A stretch of 64,000 nucleotides of DNA from Escherichia phage vB_EcoM_ESCO10 (OM386655.1); one strand, 5' to 3'. Numbered from the stretch's first letter, positions 13,022-25,465 are shown. Notes: generated by a model not told the origin, from the letters alone. Made by a program: numbers and translations.

Positions 13022-13321
13022 TTAGAAAGAACCAGAGCCTTTAATTGTATTCTGACGTCCTTTATTTTCTACTTCAGAGTGGTCGATTTCGTAAGCTTGT
13101 GCTACACCAAAGGATTTTTTAATTTTAGCCAATGAGCCTTTAGAAATAACAATGTTAAAGGTGTTGCCTTTAGAAAAATCAACCAACTCTACAGTAACAC
13201 CGTTATTGGTTAAACTATTAACAATAGCATCAACATATTGCTGGTCTAAAGTTCCCTGAACGCCAATTTGAAAAGCTTTAGGTGCTTTAGCTTCAGTGAT
13301 AAATTCTTGATATGTTTTCAT
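13022..13321 (-). CDS. internal-protein-like head cargo protein (capsid-targeting N-terminus)
   Basis: Begins MKTYQEFITEAK, matching the T4 IPI/II/III capsid targeting sequence MKTYQEFIAE; AAGGAATAAT SD. Confidence 0.7.
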   Translation of the reverse strand: MKTYQEFITEAKAPKAFQIGVQGTLDQQYVDAIVNSLTNNGVTVELVDFSKGNTFNIVISKGSLAKIKKSFGVAQAYEIDHSEVENKGRQNTIKGSGSF

Positions 13322-13329
13322 ATTATTCC

Positions 13330-13689
13330 TTAAAGATGGTCAAGGGCTGGGTTATGAGGTTTTTCTGCTTTAGTAGTGTTTTTATGCCAATCTGATTTAG
13401 AAACACGGATGGCATCAGCGCCATAAGAACTCTTAAGGAGACCTTTTTTATTGTACACACTTATTGAAGTAAGAGAATCACCATTCCATGTAGCATGAAT
13501 GAAGTTAGATTTAGATTTAAGTTCTTTAGCCAAGCTCTGGTTAGTGGCCATGGAAGCAAAGTCTATACCTGTAACTTTAAAAACTTCAGATGGGTTCAGC
13601 CCTTCTTTAGCCTTAGCCAATTGTTCAGGAGACATACCTTCGTTAATGCGCTGAGTAGATTCAGTAATAAATTGTTTGTAAGTTTTCAT
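13330..13689 (-). CDS. internal-protein-like head cargo protein
   Basis: Begins MKTYKQFITEST; AAGGAATAAT SD; early-like promoter upstream. Confidence 0.7.
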   Translation of the reverse strand: MKTYKQFITESTQRINEGMSPEQLAKAKEGLNPSEVFKVTGIDFASMATNQSLAKELKSKSNFIHATWNGDSLTSISVYNKKGLLKSSYGADAIRVSKSDWHKNTTKAEKPHNPALDHL

Positions 13690-13713
13690 ATTATTCCTTA
13701 AGTTGATAGAAGT

Positions 13714-13743
13714 ATTCTATCACGGATTTAATTAAGCGTAAAT
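13714..13743 (-). promoter_or_regulatory. early-like promoter upstream of IP-like gene
   Basis: ATTTAC (-35 variant), 18-nt spacer, TAGAAT -10. Confidence 0.35.
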
Positions 13744-14148
13744 AGCCTTACCATAATGTTTGTACCAGGTAGGGCGTTGTGCAATTTTTTCGTCTAAACG
13801 GGCTTGTGATATAGCGATAGAAGCTTCATGGGGAATATAATCACCACGGAATTCCTGAGGAATATCACTAATATCCTGGACTGTAGTATCCTTGATATTA
13901 AACCCGCGTTTTAGACATTCGGCTATAAGCTCAATTTGACGTTTACGTAAGAACTCAAGCTTATCGTAAAAGAATGTAACATGACCCGTGCCAAGGATAA
14001 AACCTGAGCTGATTTTAAAATCACGAACACGTTTACCATTAGCAACATGCTTACGAACTGCACTGAAAACACGTGGTAATTCACGATATTCAGCCATTAA
14101 GTGTTGGTCAGCCAATTCAGATACTAAAGTAAGGTTGATACGAGTCAT
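13732..14148 (-). CDS. denV: endonuclease V (pyrimidine-dimer DNA glycosylase)
   Basis: 138 aa, near-identical to T4 DenV as recalled ([28 protein letters not shown]...); start corrected from track 14325 to ATG 14148. Confidence 0.95.
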
Positions 14149-14176
14149 TTTTAATCTCCTGTGTCGGTATGAGAGT

Positions 14177-14205
14177 ATCATATCACAACTACAGGAGATG
14201 TAAAC
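14177..14205 (-). promoter_or_regulatory. early promoter cassette upstream of denV
   Basis: GTTTAC 14200..14205, 17 nt, TATGAT 14177..14182; CCTGT/ACAGG stem pairs into the SD. Confidence 0.6.
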
Positions 14206-14209
14206 AACT

Positions 14210-14704
14210 TTATAGATTTTTATACGCGTCCCAAGTACCAGTTCTAAACGTTGAAATGACTCGCTTAGCTCGGTTGGGGGTCTGTTTGTACCAACGAGAC
14301 TGTGCCAGGTTAACTGCGGCCTCATCCCAACGTTTTTGTTGGAGCATACGAAGAGAGTTAGTAAATCCTGCTACACCAGCTTCACCCATTTGGAAGACCA
14401 TATTAATTAGTGCGCAACGACGAACTTCGTCAAGCACATCATAAACAGGTTTCAATTTAGGATTACGCAGAATAGCTCTACGAGCATTTTCCACTGAACG
14501 ATTAAAGAGTTGTTCTGCTTCAGTCATTGTAATACGACCATTACAAACTCGACCCATAAGTTTATCAAGTTCAGCACGAGCAACATCTTTAGAAGGATTC
14601 TTGGTTATCAATTGACCGATGCCAATAGTCCAATAACCTTCGGTGTCTTTATAAAGATTTAAATCAAGACCTTCGTCTTGACGTAACATATCAAAAATAT
14701 CCAT
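14210..14704 (-). CDS. e: lysozyme (endolysin)
   Basis: 164 aa, near-identical to T4 lysozyme ([17 protein letters not shown], ...[11 protein letters not shown]). Confidence 0.97.
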
Positions 14705-14734
14705 AATACCTCCTGAGTATAGGAGGTATTTATT
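14705..14734 (-). promoter_or_regulatory. SD-sequestering hairpin and late-promoter-like box in front of lysozyme gene e
   Basis: mRNA ACCUCCU-AUACUC-AGGAGGU (14708..14727) holds the SD in the 3' arm 4 nt before AUG; AAUAAAUA box (14727..14734) abuts the 5' arm. Confidence 0.6.
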
Positions 14735-14738
14735 ATTC

Positions 14739-15188
14739 TTAGAACATCGAGCTCAGAACCTTATACATCGACTGGCCCATGACATATTCCCATTGTGGAC
14801 GTTTAATCAAGGCGAAAGCATCGAACTCAGGAATACTACGACCGTCAGGGAACGTATGATAAGCAGTACATTTGCAATTCTTGAACTGCTCGTGTTCCAC
14901 AGGCACAGTATATAAGAACAGGTGTAGATTCTTATTGCTAGAATATTTGAACTCACCTAGGTCTTTCAGGAACGCAGGGTCATATGCAGTGAATCCAATC
15001 TCTTCTTCGGTTTCACGCATAGCGGCTTGAATTGGTTCTTCACCCAGTTCAACATGACCTTTAGGAATGTCCCATTTATGACGCATATTCTCTGGATTAC
15101 GAGAACCTGTTACACGGCCCATGACTAGTTCTTTATCAACGGTCATGAACAAAATACCTGCTGATAGTTCTTTAACTTTCTTACTCAT
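14739..15188 (-). CDS. nudE: Nudix hydrolase
   Basis: Nudix box [23 protein letters not shown]; 149 aa (T4 NudE about 151); start moved to ATG 15188; directly downstream of e as in T4. Confidence 0.8.
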
Positions 15189-23989: not shown

Positions 23990-24064
23990 TGGTGGCCCTT
24001 GCTGGTTTCGATCCAGCTACCTATCAGTTATGAGCTGACAGCTCTCCCATTGAGCTAAAGGGCC
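23990..24064 (-). tRNA. tRNA-Met(CAU): tRNA-Met (or Ile2), anticodon CAU
   Basis: Manual cloverleaf: acceptor GGCCCTT/AAGGGCC, D arm GCTC-AATGGGA-GAGC, anticodon stem GTCAG/CTGAT with loop CTCATAA, T arm GCTGG-ATCGAAA-CCAGC, encoded CCA. Confidence 0.8.
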
Positions 24065-24071
24065 TTAATTA

Positions 24072-24491
24072 TTAACTTGACCATCCCCAACCTTCGGAAG
24101 GACCATCGTAGTGTACACAAATATCAGGTGAAATATTAAAATTGGCTTCGTTCGAAGAAAAAACACCCAACTTTTTACCAAACTCACTGAAGCAGAATTG
24201 TTCGCCGCCTGGAGCCCAAACATCTTCAAATAAAACAGTGAATAGCCAGCCGGCAATTTCATCTGCATCAAATTCTGTTACACCTGAGCACATTTCATAT
24301 AACTCGTCATCACAGACTGTAGCCACGATATGGGCCGAATGTTCTTCAGATTTTAACCAGATGCGAATTAAATTACCATCAAAACAATTGTAGTTAATTT
24401 CGGATGGCCGGCAGTTATAAAATACTTCTGTAGCGATTTCTGGATTTTCCCAGGTTTCGTCGTTAAAATTGATAAGAATAGGAGTAATCAT
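24072..24491 (-). CDS. hypothetical acidic protein
   Basis: 139-aa ORF; GAGGAAAAT SD; MotA-box middle promoter upstream. Confidence 0.55.
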   Translation of the reverse strand: MITPILINFNDETWENPEIATEVFYNCRPSEINYNCFDGNLIRIWLKSEEHSAHIVATVCDDELYEMCSGVTEFDADEIAGWLFTVLFEDVWAPGGEQFCFSEFGKKLGVFSSNEANFNISPDICVHYDGPSEGWGWSS

Positions 24492-24569
24492 ATTTTCCTC
24501 ATTAGTTGATTATTCTATTATGAAAGGCTCTTTGAGGGAAGAACCTTTGGTAATAGAGGGTACTTATTA

Positions 24570-24594
24570 ATAATAACACACTGCTCTTAAAGCA
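24570..24594 (-). promoter_or_regulatory. putative MotA-dependent middle promoter
   Basis: Minus-strand TGCTTTA box (24588..24594), 12-nt spacer, TATTAT -10 (24570..24575), upstream of gene 24072..24491. Confidence 0.45.
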
Positions 24595-24603
24595 TATTAC
24601 TTG

Positions 24604-24984
24604 TTAACCTTCGTCAACAATAGTATGGGTGTTGGCATTAACAATCTGCCACCAGTCAAAACGGTTGGAACCATATTGAGGCTTATTCTCGTTTTCTTTA
24701 ATGATATCACGCAGTTCGTCTTCAGTAGCAGCTTTTGCAATTAAATCTGCATAACCGCCACGGGGATAATAGCTATCGCCAGCAAAGAGTAAAAAGTTTG
24801 TTTTAATATTCTTGAATTCTTCAAGAGTAATAACCGTTCCAGATGGTTGAACAATATCTACGTAACTATATCCTAATTTCTGGGCTTCATTTACTGCTTC
24901 AAGCAGGGTGTCATGGGCCCATCCGATTTGACAATCCGGTTTTTCAGATGGGTTGGCTTGATAATCTGCGTACACTTTATACAT
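24604..24984 (-). CDS. hypothetical protein
   Basis: Start placed at ATG 24984 behind AAAGGTGAG SD (track 25032). Confidence 0.5.
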   Translation of the reverse strand: MYKVYADYQANPSEKPDCQIGWAHDTLLEAVNEAQKLGYSYVDIVQPSGTVITLEEFKNIKTNFLLFAGDSYYPRGGYADLIAKAATEDELRDIIKENENKPQYGSNRFDWWQIVNANTHTIVDEG

Positions 24985-24985
24985 T

Positions 24986-25171
24986 TTACTCACCTTTAGA
25001 GATTTTATCCATAACGAAAGAGATTGAACCAATTAAAAATGCCACTACTAAAGAGATTGTATTCTCAGAAGTTGAAAGCAAATTCAACATGAATCCTGCA
25101 AACATACTAAAACCAAAAGCAGTAATAGCGACCAGTGCAGTAACATTTCTAATTAATTCACAACGTTTCAT
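24986..25171 (-). CDS. small membrane protein
   Basis: Start moved from TTG to ATG 25171 behind GGAGAA SD; two hydrophobic segments. Confidence 0.5.
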   Translation of the reverse strand: MKRCELIRNVTALVAITAFGFSMFAGFMLNLLSTSENTISLVVAFLIGSISFVMDKISKGE

Positions 25172-25207
25172 TTTATTCTCCAATCACTCATTTGTTTTGA
25201 TAGGGCT

Positions 25208-25237
25208 ATAGTATCATCACTAGAGCCCGTTGTAAAC
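25208..25237 (-). promoter_or_regulatory. early promoter cassette
   Basis: GTTTAC 25232..25237, TACTAT 25208..25213; GGGCTCTAG/CTATAGCCC inverted repeat. Confidence 0.55.
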
Positions 25238-25240
25238 AAT

Positions 25241-25465
25241 TTATTCAACACCAGCTGCTTTCAAAAGTTTTTTAAGATTGGCTGTGCCCTGAGCAGAAAA
25301 CGTGACCTTGCCACCTTTTTCACTGATAGAACCAACCAATTTGGCAAGTTTATCATTAGGAATTTTTTTAAAATCGGCCAATGTTCCATCAAAGGTTTTT
25401 GAAACAAAAGGCAGTTCGTCTTCGTGTCTTTTAGCTTCTGTGATAAATTCTTGATATGTTTTCAT
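25241..25465 (-). CDS. internal-protein-like head cargo protein (position of T4 ipI)
   Basis: Begins MKTYQEFITEAK at ATG 25465; overlapping early and late (TATAAATA) promoters upstream; adjacent to 57B as ipI is in T4. Confidence 0.7.
   Translation of the reverse strand: MKTYQEFITEAKRHEDELPFVSKTFDGTLADFKKIPNDKLAKLVGSISEKGGKVTFSAQGTANLKKLLKAAGVE

Follow-up and report, generated by a model that had tools for sequence, protein, structure and literature searches.

Introduction

The internal proteins (Ips) IPI, IPII and IPIII of bacteriophage T4 each carry an N-terminal capsid-targeting sequence (CTS) of the form MKT[YF]xEF, ending in I-x-E, which precedes a small basic mature protein with a pI of approximately 9-9.6. 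IPIII is required on strain ECOR17. Experiments on IPIII have assigned targeting to CTS residues 4 and 7 and processing to residues 8 and 10, with the prohead protease gp21 cutting after L/I-x-E, and the 10-residue CTS is sufficient in T4 to package foreign proteins (PMC9026906). For the T-even phages, the idea that they carry a varied repertoire of anti-restriction proteins, tagged by a CTS and injected, is long established and dates from 1994 (Repoila 1994 as cited in PMC3012670). Here, we analyse four genes that open with a CTS in a 64,000-nt window of Escherichia phage vB_EcoM_ESCO10 (OM386655.1), the window being the whole stretch of DNA studied: gene 1 (13022-13321), gene 2 (13330-13689), gene 3 (22665-23126) and gene 4 (25241-25465), all on the minus strand. 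They are very probably members of the T-even Ip class, made, packaged, cleaved and injected in the manner set out below.

The resemblance to T4 IPI-III extends from the CTS and the basic mature protein to the genetic setting. In both cases the genes are non-essential, lie beside 57B and denV, have early-type promoters (all promoter calls being consensus matches, not transcripts), and are found in a genome that also encodes gp21 and the prohead core. The arrangements differ in that genes 1 and 2 lie on the downstream side of denV and not in the denV-e interval, and in that gene 3 occupies a third locus, flanked by rnaC and e.8. Each of T4 Ip1, Ip2 and Ip3 inhibits a defined GmrSD enzyme of its own (Silas et al. 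2025, PMC12373910), and their mature sequences have no detectable similarity to the four proteins described here. Much closer are Ip7 and Ip8, two members of that T-even repertoire annotated in VR5, RB15 and T2-like phages: genes 1 and 4 are 99% and 98.6% identical to VR5 ip7 and ip8, respectively. The locations are not fully conserved, however. The Ip7-family gene of T2 is at the ipI locus, whereas the one in the window is at the denV locus, and most relatives have ip8 followed by ip9, whereas ip8 stands alone here.

Gene exchange at defined boundaries has been described for T4-like phages in the form of promoter-early stem-loop (PeSL) cassettes (Arbiol 2010; Comeau 2014, PMC4122927). The TTTACA-N16/17-TACTAT pair at gene 4 matches the TTTACW..N17..TAYWAT consensus for T4/PST, and relatives are set apart by a gene gained or lost between the same two elements, which would fit such exchange. 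The gene 3 cassette is different: its boundaries are two copies of a terminator hairpin, joined to a late promoter, and not an early promoter. Parallels are also found in packaged anti-restriction proteins of other phages, DarA/DarB of P1 and the internal core proteins of T7, which, as we propose for the four proteins, are loaded into the capsid, delivered together with the DNA, and act before phage gene expression. These proteins are unrelated in sequence, are loaded by another mechanism, and have neither an MKTY-type CTS nor gp21 processing at L/I-x-E.

Four genes open with a capsid-targeting sequence

A first-pass annotation of this DNA, made from the sequence alone, had described four internal-protein-like genes with mutually unrelated mature parts, and both elements of that description are borne out, the second at the level of sequence. 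The four ORFs are present, and each of them begins with MKTY..F, as the T4 CTS does. The degenerate pattern ATGAARACNTAY occurs exactly four times in the window, every time at the start of one of the four genes; 0.29 occurrences are expected from shuffled sequences, and 0 of 100 shuffles reached four. No further credible CTS-like N-terminus was found in a six-frame scan of the window. The targeting residues Tyr4 and Phe7 are present in all four genes. The processing residues Ile8 and Glu10, in the form of I-T-E, are found in genes 1, 2 and 4, while gene 3 has Leu8 followed by M-T-E11, so that the similarity extends to a gp21 cleavage site in three of the genes and falls short of a canonical L/I-x-E in gene 3. 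The CTS codons of the four genes differ at synonymous positions (ACA/ACT, TAT/TAC, ATC/ATT), which indicates that the peptide is conserved and not merely the DNA.

Beyond the CTS, no pair among the four genes reached E<0.1 in an all-against-all BLASTP comparison of the mature parts that included T4 IPI-III, and no sequence similarity to T4 IPI-III was detectable. The four genes match four different PHROG families. Their mature parts have masses of 6.8-15.7 kDa and pI values of 9.0-9.6, to be compared with 8.0-20.4 kDa and 9.0-9.65 for T4 IPI*-IPIII*. None of the four proteins has any Pfam hit at the curated cut-off, and no enzymatic domain was detected by this search.

The region that contains the four genes matches T4-like coliphages in the JS98/VR5 group, which belong to Dhakavirus, with a nucleotide identity of approximately 89-95%. 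Its gene order is that of T4: vs.8, denV, e, nudE ... e.6, e.8, tRNAs, trna.4, ipI locus, 57B, 57A, 1, 3. Gene 21 is located on the plus strand (55969-56604) and encodes a prohead protease (Pfam Peptidase_S77, E=1.6e-102) that is 89% identical to proteases from Tequatrovirus-like coliphages among the matches listed; it is the enzyme expected to remove the CTS. The prohead core genes 67, 68 and 22, together with gene 21, span 55275-57450 (plus strand) and were assigned by position and by synteny with T4 20-67-68-21-22-23-24. Cleavage sites are kept in gp23 (L-T-E/AEIGGDHGY, the slash marking the cut) and in gp24 (MAKINELLRE/S).

The denV locus

Gene 1 encodes a protein of 99 residues with the CTS MKTYQEFITE/AK and a mature part of 9.5 kDa (pI 9.0). 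It matches phrog_2667, 'internal head protein', over residues 1-99 (E=5.7e-42), was found in 283 phage records, and is 52-54% identical to the T2-type 'internal head protein 7'. At the level of sequence, gene 1 is Ip7.

Gene 2 encodes a protein of 119 residues with the CTS MKTYKQFITE/ST, a second I-N-E at residue 17, and a mature part of 11.9 kDa (pI 9.4). It belongs to phrog_3966 ('unknown function'), and PSD9 and E33 encode proteins with 97.5% identity to it. Relatives of gene 2, as well as those of gene 3, were taken from tblastn against a phage collection. Nearly all gene 2 family members examined are labelled 'hypothetical'; a single one is called 'RNA polymerase ADP-ribosylase', evidently by mistake. 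Mosigvirus relatives of gene 2 also begin with MKTYQEFITE. A scan of IMG/VR returned no relatives of gene 2, and a word-indexed protein search returned one cluster only.

The two genes adjoin denV on its downstream side, as the four CTS genes of RB69 lie around denV. A 46-nt direct repeat with 87% identity (13288-13333 and 13656-13701) covers the ribosome-binding site (RBS) AAGGAATAAT and the CTS codons of both genes. By eye, 35 of the first 36 nucleotides are common to genes 1 and 4. The closest relative at this locus is KIT01, which has two extra CTS genes between denV and e that are missing here.

Several observations on the surroundings of these genes can be added. The denV-e interval in the window (14149-14209) is only 61 nt long and has no gene; in T4 it holds ipII and ipIII, and in KIT01 an IPII orthologue and a 132-aa protein that begins with MKTYNEFIAE. 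Of the four CTS-starting genes around denV in RB69 (among them RB69ORF123c and RB69ORF124c, at 2501-2830 and 2160-2432 of sequence L012), RefSeq calls only two internal head proteins. RB69ORF123c is a homologue of gene 2 (33-36% identity) in which Ala replaces the cleavage residue Glu10 (MKTYQEFIAAVT); close Mosigvirus relatives keep FITE. Downstream of gene 1, a non-coding spacer of approximately 110 nt (12911-13021) has a G+C content of 47-48%, compared with approximately 36% around it. The spacer has no Rfam hit, and its predicted folding is not better than that of shuffled sequences (z=+1.6). At the same position KIT01 has a spacer of approximately 160 nt, and T4 has none.

The rnaC-e.8 locus

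Neither of the two recognised Ip loci (57B-trna.4, and around denV/e) contains gene 3. The gene encodes a protein of 153 residues with the N-terminus MKTYNEFLMTE/AS and a mature part of 15.7 kDa (pI 9.3), matches phrog_2280 ('unknown function', E=1.2e-53), and is 95% identical to RB27_136. The family comprises 511 phage records, 'hypothetical' in all cases among the matches listed. Coverage is at least 80% in 469 of these records; 411 of the 511 have 60-80% identity, and a further 81 exceed 80%.

The CTS of gene 3 has one extra residue, which places Glu at position 11 and Met, instead of Leu or Ile, at P3. Leaders in the family vary (FLTE/Q, FLNESVLTE/A, FLNEAVLNE/A, FLAE/G, FVDGNLITE/S), but x-x-[YF]-x-E-F-[LV] followed by [LI]-x-E is kept even in the most divergent relatives found, across an overall divergence of approximately 30%. 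From this retention of the motif by varied leaders it follows that the leader is under selection across the family. The FLMTE variant recurs in several distinct family sequences, and Met at P3 is therefore probably tolerated.

In an AF2 model of the protein, the CTS is disordered (pLDDT<50 for residues 1-11) and is followed by folded domains. These consist of a three-helix domain, a P/K/A-rich linker (KPAPKADPKAAQEK) and a long, coiled-coil-like helical hairpin, so that the predicted structure is all-helical. When an HMM profile of gene 3 was searched exhaustively, it returned 11 representatives only, from a handful of phage clusters; one of the 11 is a spurious hit to a repeat protein (E=4.4e-4), and no bacterial homologue was found. 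A word-indexed protein search gave ten clusters. In Yersinia and Klebsiella phage relatives, the C-terminal half is replaced by unrelated sequence. The Yersinia phage fHe-Yen9-01 has two adjacent, possibly paralogous proteins, gp154 and gp153 (1422-2537 of sequence L013), with gene-3-like N-termini (MLQYNEFLKE.. and MLEYSEFLKELFCE..). The N-terminal domain of gp153 is common with gene 3, and the C-terminal halves of both proteins differ from that of gene 3. The sequences of this pair suggest domain swapping and tandem duplication in the family.

Gene 3 is enclosed by a direct repeat of a 33-nt terminator hairpin, the two copies of which are 88% identical and bound the gene as a cassette. The upstream copy (23160-23192, minus strand) overlaps at its 3' end with a late-promoter motif, TATAAATA, at 23155-23162; the downstream copy (22625-22657, minus strand) is also the intrinsic terminator of the gene. 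The late-promoter motif is at the same position in most relatives examined, and two of them have a variant ending in ATAAATA. The transcription unit is thus purely of the late type (terminator hairpin, TATAAATA, gene, terminator), and this layout is kept in 8 of 8 related loci examined, including the two with the variant motif. T4 has a single terminator copy at this site with the same downstream flank and no gene, and no remnant of gene 3 was found there.

The ipI locus

Gene 4 occupies the classical ipI position, adjoining 57B. It encodes a protein of 74 residues with the CTS MKTYQEFITE/AK and a mature part of 6.8 kDa (pI 9.6), and matches phrog_8765, 'internal virion protein' (E=3.1e-27). 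VR5 ip8, its near-identical counterpart, is annotated as similar to RB15 Ip8; at the level of sequence, gene 4 is Ip8. The ORF extends to an in-frame ATG at 25477, four codons upstream (MEIK-MKTY...), which relatives do not have.

An early-type promoter-like site, TTTACA-16-TACTAT, lies upstream of gene 4 (25503-25530, minus strand), with the same sequence in VR5. The late motif TATAAATA (25512-25519, minus strand) is located inside the spacer of this site. A second early-type site, TTTACA-17-TACTAT, is found just downstream of the gene (25208-25236, minus strand). The two early-type elements are direct repeats, spaced by approximately 294 nt, with the ip8 cassette enclosed between them; in this interval VR5 and most relatives have ip8 and then ip9, and this phage has ip8 only. 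Among the matches listed for 25150-25560, Esco_phi_B-01 alone gave one unbroken match, as would be expected if it too were in the ip8-only state. The adjoining 57B homologue (25544-25999) has a Pfam match to Acb1, an anti-CBASS nuclease (E=7.4e-59), which places a proven counter-defence gene directly upstream of the Ip locus.

Promoters and cassette exchange

Four minus-strand TATAAATA sites are present in the whole window, two of which precede CTS genes, 28 nt upstream of the ATG of gene 3 (at 23126) and 46 nt upstream of that of gene 4 (at 25465). The two exact late promoters that the first-pass annotation had assigned to these genes are thus confirmed, but the picture that it gave was incomplete, as early-type sites precede genes 2 and 1 as well as gene 4. 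A sigma-70 early-type promoter-like site with a TG element, TTTACG-17-TAGAAT, is located before genes 2 and 1 (13714-13742, minus strand). We also considered a late promoter for these two genes; there is no exact TATAAATA, the sites with one mismatch are far upstream, and the early-type site at 13742-13714 is preferred. The ipI, ipII and ipIII genes of T4 have an early-type GTTTAC..N17..TAxxAT upstream and no TATAAATA.

We propose that the genes form cassettes that can be exchanged, with repeated regulatory sequences at their borders, an arrangement that would give rise to the different gene sets of close relatives. The repeated elements are early promoters for gene 4, terminator hairpins for gene 3, and the repeat of RBS plus CTS for genes 1 and 2, which fits the published Ip shuffling and PeSL exchange (PMC4122927). 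The cassette boundaries show how Ip genes are gained and lost.

Function of the four proteins

What the analysis shows are the sequence features, the family membership, the presence of the processing machinery and the cassette boundaries; beyond these, we infer the following course of events. The N-terminal CTS of approximately ten residues would bind each protein to the gp22/gp67/gp68 prohead core, after which gp21 would cut behind the terminal Glu of the CTS. What is left, a small basic mature protein, would stay in the head with the DNA and then enter the next host with it. Once injected, it would most likely counter a host defence, stoichiometrically and at time zero. This anti-defence role is proposed solely by analogy; if T4 Ip1-3 are the guide, the target would be a modification-dependent type IV restriction enzyme of the GmrSD kind. 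Dhakaviruses have been inferred to carry DNA with arabinosylated 5-hydroxycytosine (PMC13326640), and BrxU, an enzyme of the GmrSD family, cleaves arabinosylated DNA (PMC13390438); taken together, these reports make a type IV target plausible for the proteins of this phage.

A number of findings weigh against this assignment. Gene 3 is much more conserved than typical Ips, and at the expected cleavage site it has M-T-E in place of L/I-x-E, where L-T-E or L-N-E is found in aligned relatives. The Shine-Dalgarno sequence of gene 4 is weak (the AAGGA present in VR5 is absent), and there is in addition the in-frame upstream ATG (25466-25480), use of which would mean that the CTS is no longer N-terminal. 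Structure models provided no functional clue, and no fold similarity to IPI-III was found. A published screen of ip4-10 with a set of GmrSD variants gave no reproducible inhibition, and the interactions that ip7 and ip8 had seemed to show could not be repeated (PMC12373910 Supplementary Fig. 9); their target may therefore not be GmrSD. A literature search for the four proteins or close homologues found neither proteomics of virions nor N-terminal sequences nor data on injection, and no usable virion proteomics for VR5, VR7, JS98 or fHe-Yen9-01.

An alternative is that the proteins do reach the host inside the virion but have a target outside type IV restriction, for instance another immediate-early defence or a host-takeover function comparable to that of the packaged Alt ADP-ribosyltransferase on RNA polymerase. 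The irreproducible GmrSD inhibition by ip7 and ip8 (PMC12373910), the lack of any sequence or fold similarity to IPI-III found here, and the anti-CBASS identity of the neighbouring 57B, which indicates that the locus is not devoted solely to anti-restriction, are all in line with such a target. Yet all three Ips with known targets inhibit enzymes of the GmrSD family with strict specificity, the four proteins show no enzymatic domain in Pfam, and the negative assay is weak, as the panel covered 15 groups of a very diverse family (PMC12373910). We regard this alternative as rather unlikely. A separate doubt concerns gene 3, which might encode a conserved accessory protein of the head interior, or a DNA-associated structural protein, that uses the CTS only for entry, with genes 1, 2 and 4 remaining Ip-type effectors. 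Its purely late transcription unit, retained in all eight related loci (two with variant motifs), would suit a structural protein, as would its conservation, unusual for an Ip (511 records, mostly at 60-80% identity), its basic, all-helical, coiled-coil-like hairpin with the KPAPKADPKAAQEK linker in the AF2 model, and its position outside the two recognised Ip loci. This explanation is unlikely, because T4 has an empty site with a single terminator copy, which implies that gene 3 is dispensable for head assembly, and because the C-terminal half is swapped in the Yersinia and Klebsiella phage relatives, as is typical of accessory genes.

It is also conceivable that the MKTY..F N-termini are by-products of recombination between translation-initiation or leader DNA, and that some of the proteins, especially those of genes 2 and 3, are cytoplasmic and neither packaged nor cleaved. 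The 46-nt repeat of RBS and CTS common to genes 1 and 2 would be expected in that case, and so would the match between genes 1 and 4 at 35 of their first 36 nucleotides (by eye) and the early-type promoter-like sites at genes 2/1 and 4; moreover, the gene 2 homologue RB69ORF123c has lost Glu10 (MKTYQEFIAAVT), and no database calls genes 2 and 3 Ips. But early-type promoters are found at the proven Ips of T4 as well, exact late promoters precede two of the four genes, and the CTS peptide has been kept through synonymous changes and through the divergence of approximately 30% in the gene 3 family. Since the 10-residue CTS is sufficient in T4 (PMC9026906), any protein that has it and is made during prohead assembly is expected to be loaded. 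We therefore consider leader recombination a very improbable explanation, and retain the assignment of the four genes to the T-even Ip class.

The feature is real and for the most part already known: two of the genes have names, the mechanism is textbook, and the current picture of the system is unchanged. The first-pass annotation had presented the proteins as candidate injected anti-defence effectors with new specificities. Their identity as T4-type internal proteins stands, but 'new' is an overstatement, because the genes or their families are found in 89 to 511 sequenced phages and a polymorphic, injected anti-restriction set is already the standard hypothesis. What remains as novelty is modest, and consists of two CTS families that are widespread but lack annotation, a terminator-bounded cassette at a third Ip locus, and the non-canonical cleavage site of gene 3. 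A bolder reading, which we put forward tentatively and with considerable doubt, is that genes 2 and 3 represent two previously unrecognised families of injected effectors. Gene 3 would then mark a third Ip locus, widespread in Tequatrovirus and relatives, from which the gene can be excised or into which it can be inserted through the duplicated terminator; its product would combine a conserved three-helix N-terminal domain with an exchangeable C-terminal domain. Such effectors would neutralise defences not covered by T4 Ip1-3, type IV enzymes that recognise arabinosylated cytosine being a candidate.

Ips are the first phage molecules to meet host defences, and those whose targets are known each block a type IV enzyme of their own. 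For that reason the Ip repertoire helps to predict host range, and is relevant to the choice of T4-like phages for therapy. The families phrog_3966 and phrog_2280 merit annotation as putative internal proteins and entry in anti-restriction screens, although the practical gain is small.

Other features of the window

Between gene 3 and two tRNA genes lies an ORF of 184 codons (23335-23889) with a T5orf172/MUG113 domain (E=1.6e-7 and 6.4e-6). The homing endonuclease gene segB of T4 is located roughly at the corresponding position. Rfam and ARAGORN searches of 12000-26500 identified tRNA-Arg (23909-23985) and tRNA-Met (23990-24064) as the only tRNA genes, compared with eight in T4, and no other RNA elements. 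The two minus-strand TATAAATA sites that do not precede CTS genes are located at 8218-8225 and 28959-28966. The first of these, in the early-gene part of the window, lies upstream of an ORF encoding 97 residues (7834-8127), which is not a CTS gene; its product has a signal-peptide-like N-terminus and may be Spackle-like.

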